A DNA stretch of 25,778 nt from Nitrospiraceae bacterium (lineage in GTDB: Bacteria > Nitrospirota > Nitrospiria > Nitrospirales > Nitrospiraceae), in NCBI GenBank assembly GCA_031418735.1, contig JANOJM010000279.1:1-25778 (forward strand). The letters run 5' to 3'. The notes below the pieces were generated by a model, which was not told where the DNA came from, ran no database searches, and was given only the letters and a program-made list of their open reading frames with translations. This document shows, one piece after another, positions 3,581-15,859 of the stretch (its first letter is position 1; each line of letters starts with the position of its first letter). Made by a program: the position numbers and the translations under genes.

Positions 3581-4939
3581 ATGCAGGCCACACCACGCTT
3601 GATCCCGCTGCCGCTCTACACGCAAGTGCTCATCGCTGTGGCTTGTGGCGCGGTGCTGGGAGTGGTCTTTGGTCAAGAGCCCTATCTGGGCGGCTTAAAG
3701 AACGAGCATTTGGGCTGGCTCGGGCTGCTGCTCGTCACGCTGTTGAAGACCCTTGCCATCCCGCTCATCTTCTTTGCGATCCTCGATGCGCTCATCCGCA
3801 CCAGTCTCCCGCTACGTCAAGGGACCAAGCTGCTCCTCATCTGTCTCATCAATGTCTCCGTGGCCATGACGATCGGCCTCGTGATCATGAATACCTGGCA
3901 GCCTGGCCTAACCTGGTACGGCCACGTCGACGAATTGCTAAACGTCGTGCCAAGCCCTAAGCCATCGGCGGGCGCCGCTGCAACAGTGCAAACCGGGACG
4001 CAGAGTCCGATCGAATACCTCGCGTCCTATATTCCCCGCACCATCATGGCGCCGTTTTCGAGCGGAAACATCATCGGAGTCGTCCTCCTCGCCCTGTGCA
4101 TCGGTGCCATGCTTCGCCGCCTGCATGGCAATGCAAATCAGGGTCGTGGAGTCGTTCATACCCTCGTGCGAATCATTGAGCGCGTTTATTCGTGGCTCGT
4201 ACAAATGCTCGGATGGATCATCCTTGCAGTGCCGCTCGCCGTCTTCGGCGTCGTCGCCCAGGTCGTCGGCAAGGCGGGCATCGGCGTCTTCGTCGTCCTC
4301 TGGATATTCCTCGTCACCATGCTCGTGGGACTCGCCATCCATGCGCTGGGCTACTACCCGCTCGTCGCCTGGCTGATAGGGAAGAAGTCGCCGAAGGTCT
4401 ACATCGGACAGGGAGCTGACGCGATCATGACCGGCGTATCGTGCAACAGCAGTCTCGCCGCCGTGCCAGTCACCCTCCGGTGCCTCGATCGCATGCAGGT
4501 CTCGCCTCAATCGGCGCGTCTCGCAGCCTGTGTCGGCACGAACCTCAACAACGACGGTATCACCCTCTATGAAGCGATGGCCGCGCTCTTTCTTGCGCAA
4601 GCGCTGGGCTACGACCTCTCGATGGGCAGTCAGGTGTTGATCGTCGTTGCGTCGATGATTGCGGGGGCCGGCGTGGCCGGCATTCCGGAAGCGGGGATGA
4701 TCGTGTTGCCGCTCGTCCTCTCAGCCGCCGGCTTGCCCCCTCATGTCATCGGTGCAGCCATTCCACTCATCATGACGGTGGATTGGATCATCGCCCGAGC
4801 CCGCTCCGGCGTGAACGTCCTGAGCGACATGCTCGTCGCCATCCTCCTCGATGTCGGGCGTGTCACACCCGAGACGGAACAGGCCGCGCTTCAATCCCAA
4901 TCCGACGTCACGACTCCCACAGAGCCCCAGCCCTCCTGA
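3581..4939 (+). CDS. Dicarboxylate/amino acid:cation symporter (DAACS/SDF family)
   Basis: Multi-TM protein with CNSSLAAVP, GTNLNNDGITLYE, GVAGIPEAG and DWIIARARSGVNV motifs. Confidence 0.93.
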   Translation: MQATPRLIPLPLYTQVLIAVACGAVLGVVFGQEPYLGGLKNEHLGWLGLLLVTLLKTLAIPLIFFAILDALIRTSLPLRQGTKLLLICLINVSVAMTIGLVIMNTWQPGLTWYGHVDELLNVVPSPKPSAGAAATVQTGTQSPIEYLASYIPRTIMAPFSSGNIIGVVLLALCIGAMLRRLHGNANQGRGVVHTLVRIIERVYSWLVQMLGWIILAVPLAVFGVVAQVVGKAGIGVFVVLWIFLVTMLVGLAIHALGYYPLVAWLIGKKSPKVYIGQGADAIMTGVSCNSSLAAVPVTLRCLDRMQVSPQSARLAACVGTNLNNDGITLYEAMAALFLAQALGYDLSMGSQVLIVVASMIAGAGVAGIPEAGMIVLPLVLSAAGLPPHVIGAAIPLIMTVDWIIARARSGVNVLSDMLVAILLDVGRVTPETEQAALQSQSDVTTPTEPQPS

Positions 4940-4951
4940 AGAAAGGGATGG

Positions 4952-5003
4952 TCTGTCTGGTCTATTTGGTTCTCCGATCAGCTAACCGAATAAACTAGAT
5001 AGA
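4952..5003. terminator. 20-bp hairpin built from 9-mer units between convergent genes
   Basis: TCTGTCTGGTCTATTTGGTT pairs with AACCGAATAAACTAGATAGA (3 G-U wobbles, 1 mismatch on the + strand RNA). Confidence 0.55.
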
Positions 5004-5173
5004 GCAGTTTCGGCTATCCCTACGACCGCGGCCTTCGGATTGAAGGACGCTGACCCAGTGGCTGAATCGCTCCATGTAAGATCATTGTTGCTTGTCCCCG
5101 GATAGCAGGTGACGATGAGGAGGGCTGACGGCAAACGTACATTAGGTAAGAGGGTCACGTGGAGCGACCTCGT

Positions 5174-5857
5174 CTATCGCCGTAAGAAGGCGATCCATCG
5201 CCACAGGTTCAGCAGGCTCGCGAGGGAGGCCGCCACGTAGGTCAGTGCGGCCGCGGTAAGGATGCGGCGGGCTCCCTGCTCGTCTTGAGGCGACAGGTAG
5301 TTTTTTTGCTGGAGTATCGGTAGTGCACGTCTGAAGCTGGCGTCCCACTCGACCGGAAGCGTGACAAGGTGGACAAGCGTGGCGATCCCCATCGTTGCCA
5401 TCCCGGCAACCAGGACGAGGACACCCGCCACAGGGGTCTGAGCTAATGTTGCCGCGATGGGAATGCCCAGCATCACTATCCCTCCGAGCTTTTCCGCCCC
5501 CTGTGCGACCCGCACCAGCCGCGTGCGCTCCGTGAACGGCTGATAGCCCGCCTGGTCTTGAATAGCATGCCCGACTTCGTGGGCGGCGACGGTGATCGCG
5601 GTGAGAGATTTTCCATTGAATTTATCGGGCGTCAGACGGACTGCTTTCATCTCAGGGTCGTAATGGTCACCCAGTTCGGTTGCTTCCACCTTGATGTGCT
5701 GCATGTCTAACTGATCGAGCAGGTGCCGCGCTAACTCCGCTCCCGTTCCCGGATAGTCAGGACGAGGCACACTATGCTGGGCAAACACCCGCCTGGTCCA
5801 TAGTTGCGGACCAAATACGACGATACCGACAATGACCAACAGCAGGACTAGCCGCAC
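5174..5857 (-). CDS. Neutral zinc metallopeptidase (YugP/Zn_peptidase_2 family)
   Basis: GDHYDP, AAHEVGHAIQ, TLPVEWDASFRR and AAALTYVAA motifs. GTG start with GGGAG RBS. Confidence 0.92.
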   Translation of the reverse strand: MRLVLLLVIVGIVVFGPQLWTRRVFAQHSVPRPDYPGTGAELARHLLDQLDMQHIKVEATELGDHYDPEMKAVRLTPDKFNGKSLTAITVAAHEVGHAIQDQAGYQPFTERTRLVRVAQGAEKLGGIVMLGIPIAATLAQTPVAGVLVLVAGMATMGIATLVHLVTLPVEWDASFRRALPILQQKNYLSPQDEQGARRILTAAALTYVAASLASLLNLWRWIAFLRR

Positions 5858-6006
5858 CCTATACTCCCATCCCCTCTCCCCCTGTCAGGCGAGGCACTCG
5901 ACCAAGGCCATCGGTACACCCATGTGTGGGATCGATCCCTTGTTCACTTACGATAGCACAGTGGATGGATGGAAGGGACGGATGGACATACCTTGCGCAT
6001 AACCCG

Positions 6007-7191
6007 TCACTCATCGAGGCTCGGACGAAAAATGAAGGGTCCATAGACCAGGGCAAACAACAGATAGGCCCCACTCCAACTACCTGCCGCCACCGCCAAT
6101 ACAAGATTGGCCGGGAGATCCGTCATCGGCCCGAATACTCTCAGCACGGCGCCCAGGTTGACCAGCATATAGATGAGGACCGTCAAAGGGCCCGCATGCC
6201 GGGGACGCCCCGTATGGCCCAGGCTGGCACGGGTCATCACCGCCAGCGTCATCGCGCCCACTGCGCCGCTGGTAAAGGCATGCACCGCATCCTCTTTCGG
6301 CAAACCAATCCCGAGGATCGAGCCTCCCAGTATGAGCAACGACAATGCGAACCAGCCATAGCCAACATGCAGGATCAGCACCAAGGGCTCACGCCATGTG
6401 GCCCAGCCGTACCAGCGTGCCAGACGACCAAGATTGGCCAACCCGGCTAGCGCGAATAGCCATCCCGTTACCATGGAGGAGGGCTGAACAATCCAGGATA
6501 GAACGGCGAATCCTACGAGTGCGATCGAGAGACCATCGTAACGGGAAAAGGATGTAGGCCGATCAACCCTGCCGGAATTCGCCAGAAGCTCGCCGGTAAA
6601 GTTGGGGATGAGGCGCCCACCGATCAGTGTCAGCAACAGCATCACCATCGCGAGCGCCATGCGTTCGGGACGATCTGTCTCCGCCCCGCTCAGTGAAAGT
6701 ACATGGAACAGGATGTTGGCGCCGGCCAGCAGACTCACCAACACCCCCATCGGCGCACGATCCCAGTTTTTCGACGCGATAATTTCTCGCCAGACCAGCC
6801 CCGCCACCGCGACAAGAAACCCTACATCGACGATGGCTGACACGAGGGGCGTGAACCATGGAATAGCGATCAGCACACGTCCGGCCAGCCAGAGGGTAAA
6901 GAGCGACATCAACTCAGGCCCTCGAATCGGCGGACGATCGGTCCAGTTGGGAATGGCCGTGAGCAGAAAACCCGTGATCACGGCGGGGAGAAAACCGAAG
7001 ACCATCTCATGCACATGCCAATCCCGAGCCGGATAGAGAAAATTCGAGTGGCCGACTTCGGCAAACACCAGAATCCAGACAGGGATCGCCACGCCGGCAA
7101 ACAATGCGGCGCCAAGGAAAAATGGCCTGAACCCGTACGAAAAGAATGCAGGCCCCTGGTAACTTGGACCTTCGCTCGCCTGTTCAGCCAT
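6007..7191 (-). CDS. nnrS: NnrS family membrane protein (NO/nitrosative stress response)
   Basis: FFSYGFRPFFLG, WHVHEMVFGF, GFLLTAIPNWT, GGRLIPNFT and MTRASLGHTGR motifs. Start ATG 7191 (or 7206). Confidence 0.93.
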   Translation of the reverse strand: MAEQASEGPSYQGPAFFSYGFRPFFLGAALFAGVAIPVWILVFAEVGHSNFLYPARDWHVHEMVFGFLPAVITGFLLTAIPNWTDRPPIRGPELMSLFTLWLAGRVLIAIPWFTPLVSAIVDVGFLVAVAGLVWREIIASKNWDRAPMGVLVSLLAGANILFHVLSLSGAETDRPERMALAMVMLLLTLIGGRLIPNFTGELLANSGRVDRPTSFSRYDGLSIALVGFAVLSWIVQPSSMVTGWLFALAGLANLGRLARWYGWATWREPLVLILHVGYGWFALSLLILGGSILGIGLPKEDAVHAFTSGAVGAMTLAVMTRASLGHTGRPRHAGPLTVLIYMLVNLGAVLRVFGPMTDLPANLVLAVAAGSWSGAYLLFALVYGPFIFRPSLDE

Positions 7192-7422
7192 GGATTCGAT
7201 CCTCAATGCTCAATTCGTGAGAAACCTGGCACTGGTCAATGCGTCCTGCCTGAGCAAGCCAAACGGAATTCGTGCCAAGCTACGTGCGGCGAACGGCCCT
7301 GTCAACGGATGGCTGATCGCATGTCAACCCATCAGAGGTTGAAGAAACTCTCTATTTAATGGGAAACTGCCGACAACAACAGAGCGGATTATTTGTCCAT
7401 CCTTATCTCGGCGTGAAATGCT

Positions 7423-8493
7423 GTGAACCCTCACTCCCGCATTGACAAAGTGGTTTCTACCGGACCAGCGCTACGGCTCTTAGTCCTATCGGATATTGAT
7501 GACTGGGATTTTGGCCGGCGATTGAAAGATTGCGGCCATAATATTGTCGCCTGGGCTCGCCCTAAGTGGAAGCAAGGGCCAAAGTGTGGCGCCCTTCGTC
7601 ATGCGATGAGAACGGCCGTCAGAGCTATTTTGTGCCTACCCAGACCGATAGGGCGCATTACACCGCAATTCAATGCCTGGAAATGGCTGGATGAAGAAAA
7701 GATACCGCGGATACCCTGCCCCAACGTGAACGATCCGAAATTTATTGAGTATGTGAAGGGCTTGAACGTCGATCTTATCGCGGTCTATTTCTTCCCACAG
7801 ATTTTAAAGCCGGCCATGCTCCAAACCCCCCGGTTGGGGGTCATCAATTGTCACCCCTCGCTGCTCCCTCGATACGGAGGACCACATCCGGCATTTTGGA
7901 TGCTCAAGAATGGTGAGTCGATTGCAGGGGTCACCGTTCACATGATGACGGAGGGCATCGATACAGGGGCTATCGTCGCTCAACAAGAGCTACTGATCGG
8001 AGAGGACGAAACGAACGGGCAATTGACGCAGCGGCAACACCGTGCAGCCACGACACTTTTGACTGAAGCCGTCAATGCCATGGCGCAAGGAACCATCGCT
8101 CCCAAGCCACAAAACATCGCGGAACGCAGCTATTTTGGAAAGATGAAAGCGTCCGACACCGTTGTCGATTGGAACGGGTCTGCAAAACAAATTGCAAACC
8201 TGTGGCGCGCGCTACAACCCTATGAACCTCTCGTAGCATGTCTCAATGGCATCACCATCAAGATTTTCGATGCACACCCTCAAGAGGGGCCTCCGTCAGG
8301 GAGAGTTCCTGGAGAAATCATGTCCAAGCAATCGGGGACACTCCTCGTCCAGACCGGCAACGGGTATGTCGAGATCCGGTCCTATGAAATTGAACCGTTT
8401 CACGGTTGGATCAATCGTCTTCTCCAAACGTTCCTGCTGCCTGTCGGCAGCCGTTTTGACCACTGCCCCGTCGGCAGTGGGGCTGGCATATAA
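7423..8493 (+). CDS. Formyltransferase of the Fmt/ArnA-N family (probably not the housekeeping Fmt)
   Basis: INCHPSLLPRYGGPHP...GVTVH...GIDTG catalytic motif plus a C-terminal domain. Lacks the canonical N-terminal FMGTPEFA. Confidence 0.85.
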   Translation: MNPHSRIDKVVSTGPALRLLVLSDIDDWDFGRRLKDCGHNIVAWARPKWKQGPKCGALRHAMRTAVRAILCLPRPIGRITPQFNAWKWLDEEKIPRIPCPNVNDPKFIEYVKGLNVDLIAVYFFPQILKPAMLQTPRLGVINCHPSLLPRYGGPHPAFWMLKNGESIAGVTVHMMTEGIDTGAIVAQQELLIGEDETNGQLTQRQHRAATTLLTEAVNAMAQGTIAPKPQNIAERSYFGKMKASDTVVDWNGSAKQIANLWRALQPYEPLVACLNGITIKIFDAHPQEGPPSGRVPGEIMSKQSGTLLVQTGNGYVEIRSYEIEPFHGWINRLLQTFLLPVGSRFDHCPVGSGAGI

Positions 8494-10518: not shown

Positions 10519-11154
10519 CTATTCGAACAGCTTCCTCACCCCCGCTTTAATCTGGTCCAGGCCTTCACGCAAGTCAGCCTCAAGCACATCGGCCTTGGCC
10601 TGCACCACCACGCGCTTGGCCTTGAGCTGGTCCTTAAACAACACCAGCTTGGTCAGTAGCTCTTCCTTCTTCCACTCCAACGTGACCTGCTGCTTATCTT
10701 TCTCACTTTCAAACCGATCCTTGAGTGCCTCAAACTCAGCTTCGAGCTTGCTCGTCCGGCCCACGAGATCCTCCCAGACCTTGCCTGACTCAAACGTAGC
10801 CCCTCTTAGTTTCTGTTCTGCAACTGATTCGAATTCATTCAGCGCCTTGAGAATCTTTGTCCTCTGTTCCTCAAACACATCACGGGCGTCCGCTTTACCG
10901 AGGGCCAACTGGACTTGAAGATGCTCGAGCTTGGCCTGCACCTCCATTTTTGCTTGCCCGGCTATGTCCTTCGACTTCTGCACGTCGGCCTGGACTTGCT
11001 TGAGCAGATCCCGCAGCTGTTGCTTACGCTGTTCCAGCCCCTGTAGCGCCTGATCTTTCGTCCGGGTGAGTTGCGCTTCCAGCGCCAGAGCCTGATGCTC
11101 CAACGCATCCATCTTCTTGTCGAACGACGCTCTGAGCTCTGTGATTCGCGACAT
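10519..11154 (-). CDS. All-helical coiled-coil hypothetical protein
   Basis: AGGAGG RBS. K/E/Q/L-rich heptad pattern throughout. Co-oriented 52 bp after the HglS-like gene. Confidence 0.8.
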   Translation of the reverse strand: MSRITELRASFDKKMDALEHQALALEAQLTRTKDQALQGLEQRKQQLRDLLKQVQADVQKSKDIAGQAKMEVQAKLEHLQVQLALGKADARDVFEEQRTKILKALNEFESVAEQKLRGATFESGKVWEDLVGRTSKLEAEFEALKDRFESEKDKQQVTLEWKKEELLTKLVLFKDQLKAKRVVVQAKADVLEADLREGLDQIKAGVRKLFE

Positions 11155-11205: not shown

Positions 11206-11802
11206 CTACCGAATCGCAGTGGATTTCATTAAACTGTCTGCCTGAGGAGGCGAGAACCCCTGGTATCCTCTGTGGCGCTCGGCAAGTTCCAATACGGAAA
11301 AGGGCTGCCCGTCCACCATCTCCGGCATGGTGAAGATTTGCCGTAGCTGGCCACCGCGGGCACCGACGATCTGGCTGGTAAAGACCACCCCTTGTGTCTT
11401 CAACCGTTCAATCGCCTGCTCGATGTCTTCCACGCGCACCGCCACATGGTGGAACACTTGGTCGCCAAACTTATTGACCCAACCAGGGATGATGCTCGAG
11501 CGACCCCGCTCGTCGGAGTACGCTTGATCCACGAAGAGCGCCGGGTACCCAACCTTCCGATAGACCTTCGCATACCAGTCTTGATATTCAATCGTTTCAC
11601 TGTACCCATATCCAAGCCTCGTGAATTCCTCCGCCCGCTGATCGATATTCAACGTTCTCAACGTGAGATGATCTGCGACCGGGTAGAAACCAACCCCCGC
11701 CTTGTCCAGCGAGTCCTGCAACACTTTGGCTGCCTGATTGTGCGACACATAGTCGTCGATCATCCGACTGATCAACACATCGAGTTCAACGCCTTGATCC
11801 AT
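11206..11802 (-). CDS. Compact DUF1338/HglS-like VOC-fold metalloenzyme (candidate 2-oxoadipate dioxygenase/decarboxylase)
   Basis: DHLTLRT, LGY, AKVY, PALFVDQ, HHVAVRV, GGQLRQIFT, LELAER and YQGFSPPQADSLMKST parallel the DUF1338 motifs NDHxAxRT...NHFTVS...EQSST...YEFAKR...GFxxxSADKIFEST (recalled from memory). GGAGG RBS before ATG 11802. Confidence 0.7.
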   Translation of the reverse strand: MDQGVELDVLISRMIDDYVSHNQAAKVLQDSLDKAGVGFYPVADHLTLRTLNIDQRAEEFTRLGYGYSETIEYQDWYAKVYRKVGYPALFVDQAYSDERGRSSIIPGWVNKFGDQVFHHVAVRVEDIEQAIERLKTQGVVFTSQIVGARGGQLRQIFTMPEMVDGQPFSVLELAERHRGYQGFSPPQADSLMKSTAIR

Positions 11803-11828
11803 GATGGCTGCCTCCATGGCTACGGATA

Positions 11829-11899
11829 GTCATTCGTCACTGGTCATGGCAAAAGCTGCTTCTCGGTCTGCCTCTGCATTTCTCCCATTGACCAATGAC
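11829..11899. repeat. Heptamer (GTCAyTG-type) inverted array
   Basis: GTCATTC-GTCACTG-GTCATGG ... CCATTGA-CCAATGA-C. Confidence 0.75.
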
Positions 11900-11905
11900 T
11901 TCTTT

Positions 11906-13435
11906 TTACTCCCCGAACTTTATCCCCTGGGCCAACGGTAAATCGTGACCCCAATTAATCGTGTTCGTCTGCCGCCTCATGTAGGCTTTCCAGGCATCCG
12001 AGCCGGCTTCGCGTCCTCCGCCGGTTTCCTTTTCGCCTCCAAAGGCGCCGCCGATTTCCGCTCCTGACGTCCCGATGTTCACATTGGCGATCCCGCAGTC
12101 GCTGCCGGCGGTGGACGTAAATCGCTCGCTGCTCCGCACGTCGGACGTAAAAATCGCAGAAGACAGCCCTTGGGGGACCGCATTCTGCATCGCAATGACA
12201 TCGTCAAGTTCCTTGAAGGGCATCACATAGAGAATCGGCGCAAAGGTTTCGCGCTGGACGATGGGCCAATGGTTCTCCGCTTTCACGATGGCCGGTTCCA
12301 CGAAATAGCCAGGCTGATCCAGCACCTGTCCCCCATAGAGGACTTTCCCTCCCGCCTGCTTGACCTCTTCAATCGCCTTTCGATAGGCCTCGACCGCATC
12401 TCGATCGATCAGCGGCCCCAGGAGGACGCCTGGCTCCAATGGATTGCCGATGTGTATCTGTTTGTATGCCGCGATCAGCTTCGCGACCACTTCATCGTAC
12501 CGAGCCTCATGGACAAATAACCGTCTGGTCGTCGTACAACGTTGGCCGGCGGTACCGACTGCCCCAAACAGGATGGCGCGAATCGCCAAGGAGAGGTCCG
12601 CCGTCTGATCCACGATGATCGCGTTGTTGCCGCTCAGCTCCAAGAGCGTCCGCCCCAACCGTTGCGCGACGGTCGAGGCCACAGCTCGACCGACCGGAAC
12701 CGACCCAGTGAACGAGATCAACGGCAACCGGCGATCCTTCACCAACTTCTCCGCGATGGCCTTCTCGCCCGTGATGATCAGTGAGAAAATCCCTCGATAG
12801 CCCTGCTGTTCCATCACCCGGTTACAGAGGTGCTGCACCGCAATCGCGCAGAGCGGCGCTTTCGGAGAAGGCTTCCACACCACCGTATCTCCGGCAATCG
12901 CAGCCAGGAAGGCATTCCAGGCCCAGACCGCAACGGGGAAATTGAAGGCGGTAATCACGCCAACCGGTCCAAGCGGATGCCATTGCTCCGACATCCGATG
13001 CTGCGCCCGCTCGGAATGCATCGTCGTTCCATACAACATGCGCGACTGGCCCACGGCAAAGTCCGCCATATCGATCATTTCCTGGACTTCACCGTCTCCC
13101 TCCGCCTTGATCTTGCCGACCTCAAGCGACACCAGCGAACCGAGCAAATCCTTATGCTCCCGCAACGATGCACCGATCAGCCGGACGAGCTCTCCCCGTT
13201 TGGGAGCCGGGACCAGCCTCCATTGCTGAAATGCCGCAATAGACTCCCTCACGATGTGCTCATAGTCATCGGCTGAACAGCCGTGAGTTTTTGCAATCGT
13301 CTCGCCTGTCGCTGGATTCACGGACTCCAGCTGCGCGGCGTTCTCGCCGGAAGCCCACCAATGTGTTCCGGTACTACCGCCGGAGTTGACTGCGCTCAAG
13401 CCCAATCCCTTGAGGATTTCCCCGGTGGACATCAT
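11906..13435 (-). CDS. amaB: ALDH7-family aldehyde dehydrogenase (2-aminoadipate semialdehyde / P6C dehydrogenase)
   Basis: [27 protein letters not shown] (catalytic Glu), [10 protein letters not shown] (catalytic Cys), [19 protein letters not shown]. The true start overlaps the upstream stop as ATGA (13435-13432). Confidence 0.9.
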
Positions 13436-14520
13436 TTGTAGCAGGCTCCAAATCGATTCTTGAGCACATCTTGTAACGGAAAGGATTCCTGGGTCACGAA
13501 TCCTTTGTACTGTGTAGGAGCCGCCAGCACGAGGTCGGCGACAGCGCAGAGGCTCGATGCGGTGGTCACTTGAATGGCGGACCACAGCTTCCCTTTAATG
13601 CATTGGGGATAGATCTTCTTCACGTAGTTCTCCTCGAACAAGGCGCCTTCTCTCATGCCCATGACTGAGGTATAGATCAACACAACATCCTGTAAGGTCT
13701 GGGGAACGGCCCGTTCAAGAATTCGCTTGAGCGTCTCACGGTCCTCGTTCAGCTTGAGATCGTTCATCAAGAGGTGAATCTTTTCGCAATGGCCTGGATA
13801 CCGTAGCGTCTTATAGTTCATGGTCCGGACTTTCCCCGCATAGGTATCGGCCAGCGTACCCAATCCTCCGGAGGTGTTGAATGCTTCGTAGAGGAGTCCA
13901 TCCACTTCGATCGTCTCATACCCTTCGAGCGGCAAGAGGGACACCTTCTCTCCCCCTTCAATTCCGTAGCAGATGTTGCCGTACTCGTTGATCAGCCCAT
14001 CGGTGGACCAGGTCAGCGAGTATTTGAGGGCATTACTGGGATGGACCGGCAAGGCTCCAACCCGCATCTTGACCGTATCCACCGTATCGAAATGAGTGAT
14101 CAAGTCGTGCGCGGCAATGCTGATGAAACCAGGGGCCAAACCGCATTGCGGCACAAAGGCTTGCGGGGAGTCGGCACTGAGGACTTTGACCTGATTGGTG
14201 ACCTCGACGTCCTCCGTCAGGTCGAAATAATGAAGCCGGTGTTCACGGGCCAGTCCAGCGACAACGGGATTACAGAAATAGGGCAGGCTCGATAGAACCG
14301 CATCGAATCGATGTGCCGTCATGCATGCGCTGACCGCGTCGGGATGTCGGACGTCGAGGTGCAGGGGGGTCACTCGCGAGAGACCGAGATCCTCGACAAG
14401 CTGCTTGGGAACGTCGAGACTGATGTCACCGAGAAAGACCTCGTAATCCCCGCTTTCTGACAAGAGACAGGCAACCAGGGATCCGATTTTCCCGGCGCCC
14501 AGGACAAGTACACGATGCAT
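13432..14520 (-). CDS. Saccharopine dehydrogenase family, L-lysine 6-dehydrogenase-like
   Basis: Rossmann motif [10 protein letters not shown], plus [34 protein letters not shown] and [16 protein letters not shown] before ATG 14520. Confidence 0.88.
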
Positions 14521-14727
14521 AGTTGGCCTCACTTTGGGTCAGTATACTCCTGCCCTAGCAGGCTCCGGAAACCTTTTTGCAAACTGAACCCTCTATCTTC
14601 AAATGGCGCTTCACGCGCCATGATCGTGAGAGAAAAGTAGTCTAACACATTGACTTGTATGAACATATCAACCATGAAGCGGGAACTGACTTTGTGTTAT
14701 CCTAACGTACTGTCAGGAGCAATGGTT

Positions 14728-14976
14728 ATGTTACGCATGCCTTCTCGAGTCGTACTTCCGTTCGGTTATCGGATCTCCATCCGCCAACTATCCGATACCG
14801 ATATGGACCGTCGGGATCCGAATGCCGACGGAATCTGGGACGACGCCACGAAGACCATTTATCTTCGCAAGCGCTTACCCGTAACCAGACGGCGCTACAT
14901 TCTCGCCCACGAACTTGGCCATGCCTGGCTCGACTGGCAGCATCGGCACTTAGATAACGGCAAAGCCAAAACTTAA
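14728..14976 (+). CDS. Minimal ImmA/IrrE-family metallopeptidase (82 aa)
   Basis: GIWDDATKTIYLRKRLPVTRRRYILAHELGHAW (HExxH). AGGAG RBS 8 nt before ATG 14728. Confidence 0.8.
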   Translation: MLRMPSRVVLPFGYRISIRQLSDTDMDRRDPNADGIWDDATKTIYLRKRLPVTRRRYILAHELGHAWLDWQHRHLDNGKAKT

Positions 14977-15170: not shown

Positions 15171-15653
15171 CTAACTGCTCTTAGCCCCGGCTAACTTGAG
15201 CACTACCGCCCATTCGGTTTCTGTCACTGGCTGAACCGAGAGGCGTGAGCCTTTTCGCAATAAGACCATGCCCTTCAGCTTCGATTCCTGCCTCAGTCGA
15301 TCGAGCGACAGGCTGGTCTTAAAGGTCTGACGATACCGGATGTCCACCATGTCCCACCGCGGAGCAGAGGGAACACTGGCTGCGTCGTAGTGGTGGCTGG
15401 TCTTGTCGAACTGGGTCTGGTCTGGATAGGCAGTCCGCACAACCTCCGCAATCCCCACCACAGCCGGCGGCTCGGCGTTGCTATGATAAAAAAACACCTG
15501 GTCTCCGACGGCCATCTCGCGCATGAAGTTGCGCGCCTGATAGTTCCGCACCCCATCCCAACAGGTCGTCTGTTTGGGAGATCGCGCAAGATCGTCGATC
15601 GAAAATACCCGTGGTTCTGATTTCATCAGCCAATAACGGCGCCCCTGTACCAT
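15171..15653 (-). CDS. EVE domain-containing protein (THYN1-like)
   Basis: YWLMKSEP, WDGVRNYQARNFMREMAVGDQVFFYHS and RLSVQPV motifs. GAGGTG RBS. Confidence 0.95.
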   Translation of the reverse strand: MVQGRRYWLMKSEPRVFSIDDLARSPKQTTCWDGVRNYQARNFMREMAVGDQVFFYHSNAEPPAVVGIAEVVRTAYPDQTQFDKTSHHYDAASVPSAPRWDMVDIRYRQTFKTSLSLDRLRQESKLKGMVLLRKGSRLSVQPVTETEWAVVLKLAGAKSS

Positions 15654-15859
15654 CGCATCACCTCTTCCTGTTTGGTCATTCAACGCATTGCCTGTATGCT
15701 GGTCGGCGCTGGCCCCTTGCTGATGGCCCTGTTGAGTAGCCTGCGAGATGCTCGCTTCTTGTCCATGACACGCAGGTGAGCAGCCCGAGCCATGAGTACT
15801 AGTCTAGTGACAGAGAATCATTCACAGGGTTGCACATCGTTGAAGGAACAAGTCATGTC

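Follow-up and report, generated by a model that had tools for sequence, protein, structure and literature searches.

A 198-residue VOC-fold protein in a conserved lysine gene cluster of Nitrospira, a predicted minimal relative of HglS and HPPD

Why would a bacterium that probably lives as a chemolithoautotroph keep a gene cluster for the breakdown of lysine, and what does the small VOC-fold protein encoded at the end of this cluster do there? Both questions are raised by a stretch of 25,778 nucleotides from a Nitrospiraceae bacterium (assembly GCA_031418735.1, contig JANOJM010000279.1, positions 1 to 25,778; hereafter the window), in which three genes follow one another head to tail on the minus strand: one for a saccharopine-dehydrogenase-like (SDH-like) enzyme, one for an ALDH7 enzyme and one for a VOC protein of 198 amino acids (aa). 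The answer developed here is that the VOC protein is predicted, from its sequence relatives and modelled fold, to convert 2-oxoadipate into 2-hydroxyglutarate in an Fe(II)- and O2-dependent reaction, with the necessary aminotransferase supplied in trans; we put the probability of this reading at about one half. The features concerned, each with its basis, are as follows.

13432-14520, minus strand: opening gene of the cluster, for an NAD(P) dehydrogenase of the Sacchrp_dh family, 362 aa (Pfam domains, start site)
11906-13435, minus strand: predicted ALDH7-type L-piperideine-6-carboxylate / 2-aminoadipate-semialdehyde dehydrogenase, 509 aa (NF050084, ALDH7A1 structures)
11803-11905, minus strand: spacer of 103 nt between the ALDH7 and VOC genes, with an imperfect hairpin and the Shine-Dalgarno sequence GGAGG of the VOC gene (sequence, minimum free energy)
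11206-11802, minus strand: VOC-fold protein, 198 aa, single domain; predicted to be an HglS/HPPD-type Fe(II) 2-oxoacid dioxygenase/decarboxylase (hidden Markov models, profiles, structure model)

The coordinates and the length of 198 aa had been given in an earlier reading of this DNA (the first-pass annotation), and the sequence bears them out, with all three genes on the minus strand. The mechanical open reading frame (ORF) of the VOC gene begins five codons earlier, at ATG 11817 (203 aa), but ATG 11802 is taken as the start because GGAGG lies 8 nt ahead of it and the homologues begin at that methionine. The ATG of the SDH-like gene at 14520 is preceded, at 6 nt, by the Shine-Dalgarno-like GTGAGG, its mechanical ORF beginning at GTG 14532. 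The translational coupling of the first two genes through an ATGA overlap, likewise proposed earlier, can be read directly (...tac aaa TGA, with the ATG at 13435-13433). As for the host, its genome bin (G000; 2.24 Mb, 84% complete) carries amoA (PF02461, 306 bits; G000:C258:326-1030, L135), which makes it a complete ammonia oxidizer, that is, a comammox-type Nitrospira, and in public records the homologues of these genes go under the names Nitrospira or Nitrospiraceae, all of which agrees with the chemolithoautotrophy suspected at the outset.

Sequence family and predicted fold of the VOC protein

An exhaustive search of 1.84 billion cluster representatives retrieved only 150 relatives of the VOC protein at E<=1e-3, and judged by these relatives the protein sits in a small unnamed family of ~190-240 residues. 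Two profiles of this family, A1 built from 29 members and A2 from the N-terminal half alone, were searched against the PDB sequences. Positions 94-199 of A1 match the catalytic C-terminal domain of HPPD (E 4.6e-12), the alignment pairing H124 with the metal-binding histidine (QHIA / HHVA), Q160 with the glutamine of LLQIFT / LRQIFT and E177 with the metal-binding glutamate (LEVIQR / LELAER), and laying the C-terminal helix on that of HPPD. Positions 11-101 match DUF1338 proteins, namely 3LHO (E 3.4e-8) and the rice hydroxyglutarate synthase FLO7 (6W1K, E 5.5e-5). With A2 the same two structures are found (E 2.4e-8 and 1.1e-4, respectively) and the preceding helix is aligned too, so that the family strand DH-I-t-f-R-T is set against NDHIALRT of 3LHO and YDHFAFRT of FLO7, whose His60 and Arg64 correspond to His70 and Arg74 of HglS.

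What would these residues be expected to do? In HglS, His70, His226 and Glu294 bind the metal, and Arg74 (Arg64 in FLO7), four positions after the first histidine (His+4), makes a salt bridge to 2-oxoadipate at its distal carboxylate and sets specificity; the R74A substitution abolishes activity, and the His+4 arginine is kept in >93% of the triad-bearing DUF1338 proteins (PMC7286885). The His/His/Glu-type motifs to which the first-pass annotation drew attention are indeed present in the VOC protein (DH50-L-T-L-R54-T, H123-H124 and L-E177-L-x-E-R, besides L-R-Q160-I-F-T), and all of 121 close homologues keep H50, R54, H123, H124, Q160 and E177 unchanged. Profile alignment and fold would thus make His50, His124 and Glu177 the metal triad, with Arg54 as the predicted ligand of the distal carboxylate.

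Across a wider range the pattern loosens. Among the 44 full-length representatives of 50% clusters, R54 is present in 31, and Q98, which is invariant but for a single Glu in the 121 close homologues, is Q or E in 27; the entire signature H50-R54-Q98-H124-Q160-E177 is intact in 15 of the 44, or in 24 if position 98 is left free. Four members of A1 (P0138, P0154, P0166 and P0186) have Tyr, Phe or Leu instead of His50 and Arg54 and have lost the HH pair, and this subgroup probably represents non-catalytic or differently functioning paralogues. Many Nitrospira genomes also hold a second, weak profile match (50-63 bits, positions ~44-198) that lacks the N-terminal helices and falls on ORFs of ~200-230 aa, for example G201:C2:238000-238470 and G104:C1:912236-912736, a distant VOC paralogue. 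In one further genome a second VOC copy lying away from the lysine genes (L133, G186:C1:2306332-2306912) is matched in two overlapping pieces (9-165 and 160-202) and is probably frameshifted.

An AlphaFold2 model computed on the family alignment (mean pLDDT 95.4, pTM 0.90) consists of two N-terminal helices, one eight-strand VOC barrel and a C-terminal helix, its secondary structure fitting paired beta-alpha-beta-beta-beta modules. When this model was compared with the PDB using Foldseek, DUF1338 structures took the first two ranks (3LHO, E 3.5e-11, TM 0.73 on the query; 3IUZ, E 5.5e-10), followed by hydroxymandelate synthase (HMS) and human HPPD (E 3.8e-9) and then, at weaker E-values, by glyoxalase I and methylmalonyl-CoA epimerases (TMt ~0.7). 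The structures of HglS and FLO7 themselves fall outside the top 50 chains, and the viral library BFVD returned nothing meaningful; a giant-virus HGLS cluster of 226 aa, listed in the Atlas with a score of 0.91, is at most a possible lead. On the strength of profiles and model, the VOC protein is assigned, within the VOC superfamily, to the branch of intramolecular 2-oxoacid dioxygenases, and there to a separate minimal family whose first half appears to be that of DUF1338 and whose second half that of HPPD and HMS.

This dual affinity becomes clearer when each relative is considered in turn. With HglS and the other DUF1338 proteins (P. putida PP_5260, FLO7 and the uncharacterized 3LHO and 3IUZ), of which 3LHO and 3IUZ are its best fold matches, the VOC protein shares the His/His/Glu triad, the His+4 arginine, and an N-terminal helix and DH-x3-RT strand that align residue for residue with 3LHO and FLO7; unlike them, it has only 198 aa (versus 254-460 aa), no helical insertions, no lid loop, and a second half that is nearer to HPPD. 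With HPPD and HMS it shares the metal His, the Gln, the metal Glu, the C-terminal helix and, as proposed here, intramolecular 2-oxoacid dioxygenase chemistry. It differs from these two in having one VOC domain rather than two, an Arg at His+4 and an N-terminal helical pair in place of the N-terminal VOC domain, as well as in lacking any aromatic amino-acid context.

How does this placement fare against curated family models? In the comparison suggested by the first-pass annotation, the HGLS/DUF1338 model PF07063, under which the protein does not fall by score (11.6 bits, E 0.16, cut-off 25; residues 112-160 against HMM positions 196-248), ranks below Glyoxalase_4 (PF13669, 31.7 bits), the methylmalonyl-CoA epimerase model TIGR03081 (28.5 bits) and the 4HPPD model TIGR01263 (16.8 bits); only three of the 29 family members reach E<=1 with PF07063, the best at 9.8e-5. 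Taken literally, the protein therefore fares better under the epimerase and HPPD models than under HGLS, which is the first half of what the annotation had named as refuting its own proposal. However, the epimerase and HPPD scores are equally sub-threshold (cut-offs 114.95 and 277, respectively), the protein, with its single domain, lacks the two-domain HPPD architecture, glyoxalase I (TIGR00068) reaches 19.5 bits against a cut-off of 120, and profile and fold searches put DUF1338 first. The idea of a compact HglS subfamily thus survives in part: DUF1338 is top by fold and the N-terminal half with its DH-x3-RT strand aligns with 3LHO and FLO7, but membership in PF07063 (11.6 versus 25 bits) does not hold. 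Public annotations run, much as the first-pass annotation had expected, to generic VOC or glyoxalase-like names ('VOC family protein', 'catechol 2,3-dioxygenase-like lactoylglutathione lyase family enzyme'), to 'HPPD-like putative hemolysin' or to hypothetical protein.

Could the protein, then, be a VOC enzyme that uses no O2 at all? It might be an isomerase, an epimerase, a lyase or a glyoxalase-like enzyme that employs its metal as a Lewis acid and either acts on a lysine intermediate or detoxifies a semialdehyde or imine. Such a role would sit well with Glyoxalase_4 as the only Pfam model passed (cut-off 27; 26 of the 29 family members match it), with the epimerase model as the top NCBIfam match, with the match of A1 to the epimerase 1JC4 (E 2.6e-8, positions 42-166), with a size and single-domain barrel resembling those of glyoxalase I and the epimerases (TMt ~0.7), and with the conserved Gln98 at the place of their fourth ligand. 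Yet DUF1338, HMS and HPPD come out ahead of these enzymes whether folds or profiles are searched, and the TIGR03081 score lies far under its cut-off of 115. Moreover, the 2-oxoacid dioxygenase branch is characterized by L-R-Q-I-F-T, L-E-x-x-E-R and the HPPD-aligned C-terminal helix, the N-terminal helix and DH-x3-RT are specific to DUF1338, and nothing in methylmalonyl-CoA epimerase or glyoxalase I corresponds to the N-terminal helices, to DH-x3-RT, to LRQIFT or to the C-terminal helix. A non-oxygenase function is for these reasons regarded as unlikely.

The probable lysine-route enzymes and the conservation of the cluster

The first enzyme of the cluster matches Sacchrp_dh_NADP (55 bits) and Sacchrp_dh_C (68 bits) in Pfam and no curated NCBIfam equivalog model. 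Its best solved relatives are PH1688 (3ABI, E 2.6e-19) and the N-domain of a Ruegeria pomeroyi protein labelled 'putative saccharopine dehydrogenase' (3IC5, E 5.7e-17), the SDH domain of human AASS being a weaker match than either. On this basis the 362-aa protein is a probable L-lysine 6-dehydrogenase (LysDH, EC 1.4.1.18). That it is a true saccharopine dehydrogenase is less likely, because no lysine-ketoglutarate reductase partner was seen in the window and because the nearest solved relatives are PH1688 and the R. pomeroyi protein. The middle gene belongs to the ALDH7 family: the 509-aa protein scores 434 bits with Aldedh (Pfam), passes the equivalog model for L-piperidine-6-carboxylate dehydrogenase (NF050084, 778.3 bits versus a cut-off of 730) and is matched to structures of human ALDH7A1 with an E-value near 1e-165, from which the corresponding activity is predicted.

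A bacterial lysine route through LysDH and ALDH7 (AASADH) has been described for marine Alphaproteobacteria such as R. pomeroyi. The cluster resembles that route in that the same two families stand side by side and would make 2-aminoadipate from lysine; it departs from it in that a third conserved gene is attached in Nitrospira and that the host is a nitrifier. The enzyme names of this route also occur in PMC9437556 and PMC7253579.

How firmly is the VOC gene tied to these two partners? In one-genome-per-species contigs, 80 loci with VOC relatives were collected, all from Nitrospira or Nitrospiraceae and with 69-95% VOC identity, and wherever the contig is long enough the SDH, ALDH and VOC genes are adjacent and in the same order, while the flanks change; recurring across 80 related loci, the arrangement is not due to chance. 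In a second family of the order the genes run ALDH, VOC, SDH-like (L129, G148:C1:2256000-2268500, 4479-7664), and here, as in L130 and L134, ALDH7 has been replaced by a GucD/BADH-like ALDH that is ~58% identical to the ALDH of a locus outside the phylum (L084). This is a non-orthologous replacement inside the same cluster: one partner has been swapped, and the VOC gene still keeps company with genes for a semialdehyde dehydrogenase and an SDH-like enzyme. Losses tell a similar story: among 18 sampled genomes of the two main families of the order that lack the VOC gene, 17 lack the ALDH as well, and one genus is split into eight genomes with both genes and ten with neither, counts that come from related genomes and are descriptive, with no statistical test attached. 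The exceptions are one genome with SDH and ALDH7 but no VOC gene and one with the VOC gene but no ALDH. The three genes are best explained as one conserved catabolic operon of Nitrospirales.

The association extends beyond the phylum. On a 71-kb metagenome contig (L084/L120) a 44%-identical VOC homologue is divergent from a pair of SDH-like and ALDH genes, and elsewhere (L083) there is an overlap between the end of an ALDH gene and the gene for a homologue with 51% identity. Class I adenylate cyclase and Lcl_C genes, which are Legionella-like markers, suggest that the first of these contigs comes from a gammaproteobacterium. A Tn-seq gene list in PMC10117105 includes the L-lysine dehydrogenase lpg1350 among the L. 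pneumophila genes needed for long-term survival in water, and by analogy this may be a parallel for a role in starvation.

Despite this record, it might still be asked whether the VOC gene came to its place downstream of the lysine genes by chance, as an unrelated passenger without a part in lysine metabolism. In the window it is set apart from ALDH7 by the 103-nt hairpin spacer, it stands alone in deeper-branching relatives, and the two exceptional genomes just mentioned have one side of the partnership without the other. Against this stand the adjacency in 80 of 80 loci, spread over at least two families of the order with three gene orders and two ALDH subfamilies, its recurrence in contigs outside the phylum, the correlated loss and retention of the VOC and ALDH genes, and the fact that in most Nitrospira the spacer measures only ~20 nt. 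Seen in this light, a mere passenger would be a very improbable explanation.

The spacer itself deserves a brief comment. Its hairpin (~11829-11897, minus strand) has the arms AGTCATTGGTCA / TGACCAGTGAC...GACT and a minimum free energy of -33 kcal/mol (z -3.2 versus shuffles). The arms recur in the closest relatives only, with differing interiors, and more distant Nitrospira have no hairpin and a spacer of ~20 nt; the hairpin has the appearance of a short palindromic insertion.

The surroundings of the operon are more variable. Downstream of the VOC gene, at a distance of 51 nt, lies a 211-aa coiled-coil ORF with a good Shine-Dalgarno sequence (10519-11154, minus strand); its candidacy as fourth gene of the operon was rejected, as it has no family match (weakly sll1863-like, E 0.02) and occurs in the closest relatives only. 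A fragment of an M78/IrrE-like metallopeptidase (108 aa, 14650-14976, plus strand), divergent from the operon, and a nearby gene for an EVE-domain protein (15171-15683, minus strand) accompany the operon only in some members of the genus. At ~6 kb from the operon there is also a gene of the sodium:dicarboxylate symporter family (3581-4939, plus strand), with no evidence of linkage.

The predicted reaction and its place in lysine breakdown

How might the three enzymes work together? In the proposed scheme, the product of the SDH-like enzyme would be oxidized by the ALDH7 enzyme to 2-aminoadipate, which an aminotransferase encoded elsewhere is assumed to convert into 2-oxoadipate. The VOC protein would then bind Fe(II) via His50, His124 and Glu177 and chelate the 2-oxo-acid group, with Arg54 holding the distal carboxylate, and would use O2 to decarboxylate and hydroxylate 2-oxoadipate to 2-hydroxyglutarate, as HglS and FLO7 do. 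Finally, a D-2-hydroxyacid dehydrogenase could return the carbon to 2-oxoglutarate. Like that of HglS, the setting of the VOC gene is one of lysine catabolism; unlike P. putida HglS, which serves the D-lysine pathway, it stands beside LysDH and ALDH7, that is, in an L-lysine epsilon-deamination route.

What does the rest of the genome have to say about such a scheme? No canonical HGLS gene (PF07063) was found in the host bin or in 301 sampled Nitrospirota genomes, and the sole match in that scan (21 bits, G281) falls on a member of the VOC family itself. For the usual alternative, in which 2-oxoadipate is processed by a 2-oxoacid dehydrogenase and then by glutaryl-CoA dehydrogenase, no genes can be seen in the host bin: at 84% completeness it shows no 2-oxoglutarate-dehydrogenase E1 N-domain and no acyl-CoA dehydrogenase, hence no glutaryl-CoA dehydrogenase. 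The search for acyl-CoA dehydrogenases was likewise negative in two genomes of a sister genus, both 99% complete and both with the VOC and ALDH7 genes; such enzymes do occur in other genera of the family.

Further hints come from neighbouring genes of other family members. One of these is translationally coupled to an FAD oxidase of the GlcD/LDHD/D2HGDH family (L085), and two others lie directly downstream of a D-isomer-specific 2-hydroxyacid dehydrogenase (L087 and L091), and neighbours that oxidize 2-hydroxy acids are what would be expected if the product of the VOC protein is a 2-hydroxy acid. For the last step, the host encodes on another contig a 941-aa protein (G000:C305:6493-9318, L104) in which FAD_binding_4, FAD-oxidase_C, a 4Fe-4S domain and two CCG domains follow one another in the order of the D-2-hydroxyglutarate dehydrogenase YdiJ; its gene is divergent from one for a glyoxylate/hydroxypyruvate-reductase-like D-2-hydroxyacid dehydrogenase (G000:C305:9583-10548). 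By its domain order the 941-aa protein is a candidate oxidizer of D-2-hydroxy acids.

A number of observations weigh against 2-oxoadipate hydroxylation as the function of the VOC protein. At the level of the protein, besides the sub-threshold PF07063 score, alignment of the family with the single sequence of E. coli YdcJ by hhalign was uninformative (probability 8%), the conserved Gln98 occupies the position of the fourth metal ligand of epimerases and glyoxalases, and the lid loop through which Val402 and Ser403 of HglS contact the substrate is missing. FLO7 lacks those contacts as well (PMC7286885). Specificity may nevertheless differ, because about half of HglS, the lid loop included, is absent. 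At the level of the pathway, the aminotransferase step is an assumption because, as the first-pass annotation had already noted for the operon, no aminoadipate aminotransferase is encoded there, and none is found in the window either; the host genome has at least six class I/II aminotransferases. The neighbours in L085, L087 and L091 are closest to D-lactate and glycolate enzymes and not specifically to D-2-hydroxyglutarate dehydrogenase, the 941-aa YdiJ-like protein scores 289 bits against an equivalog cut-off of 1350, and the host genome is only 84% complete. At the level of the family, deeper branches of the class, also of family rank, have their VOC gene (~52% identity) amid unrelated housekeeping genes, and the neighbours of distant members are heterogeneous (malic enzyme, histidine kinases, AhpC), so that the family may not have one single substrate.

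Several of these points lead to a related alternative, namely that the chemistry is the same, an intramolecular Fe(II)- and O2-dependent decarboxylation and hydroxylation of a 2-oxoacid, but that the substrate is another one with a distal charged group, for example 2-oxoglutarate (giving malate), 2-oxopimelate, or the 2-oxo-6-aminocaproate that arises from lysine by alpha-deamination. The missing aminotransferase would then not be needed, or the enzyme would serve a side reaction. A different substrate would also suit the pocket, which must differ from that of HglS because ~250 residues, among them those of the lid loop, are absent, as well as the neighbours met outside Nitrospirales, one of which is a malic enzyme, and the deep Nitrospiria copies that are unlinked to lysine genes. 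It is harder to reconcile with the His+4 arginine, which is tied to 2-oxoadipate specificity (PMC7286885) and is invariant in the Nitrospira group, or with the sole conserved partners in three arrangements being an SDH-like enzyme and a semialdehyde dehydrogenase, whose product would be 2-aminoadipate. Another substrate is thus held to be improbable, and 2-oxoadipate is preferred as the substrate at the even odds given above.

What the family would mean for Nitrospira

To our knowledge, the conversion of 2-oxoadipate to 2-hydroxyglutarate has been known only since 2019-2020, and only from DUF1338 proteins. A literature search returned two papers by Thompson et al. on HglS and DUF1338 and few later mentions; it brought up no work on a short HglS-like family or on lysine catabolism, saccharopine dehydrogenase or aminoadipate in Nitrospira. 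It is tempting, though tentative and with the odds somewhat against it, to view the VOC family as a minimal lineage that is the third among intramolecular 2-oxoacid dioxygenases and a surviving link from HPPD/HMS to HglS/DUF1338, and which would complete a CoA-independent, O2-dependent route from lysine to 2-oxoglutarate in nitrite-oxidizing and complete-ammonia-oxidizing Nitrospira. Should the prediction fail, what is left is an ordinary conserved operon with a VOC protein of no assigned role.

Should it hold, there would be a second and much smaller catalyst for the 2-oxoadipate step, one that is at present annotated as a generic glyoxalase, and lysine catabolism would therefore be under-called in genomes. 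An enzyme of 198 residues that joins one half of HglS to one half of HPPD would also bear on the origin of the 2-oxoacid dioxygenase branch of the VOC superfamily and could offer a compact scaffold for engineering. For the organisms themselves the consequences may be wider. Nitrospira, which are key nitrifiers of soil, water-treatment plants and drinking-water filters, would gain a defined catabolic route that releases ammonia from an amino acid, with D-2-hydroxyglutarate as an expected metabolite, and such a route would bear on mixotrophy and on how the cells outlast a shortage of ammonia or nitrite. From free lysine these 'autotrophs' could then obtain both ammonia, the energy substrate of comammox strains, and an intermediate of the tricarboxylic acid cycle.

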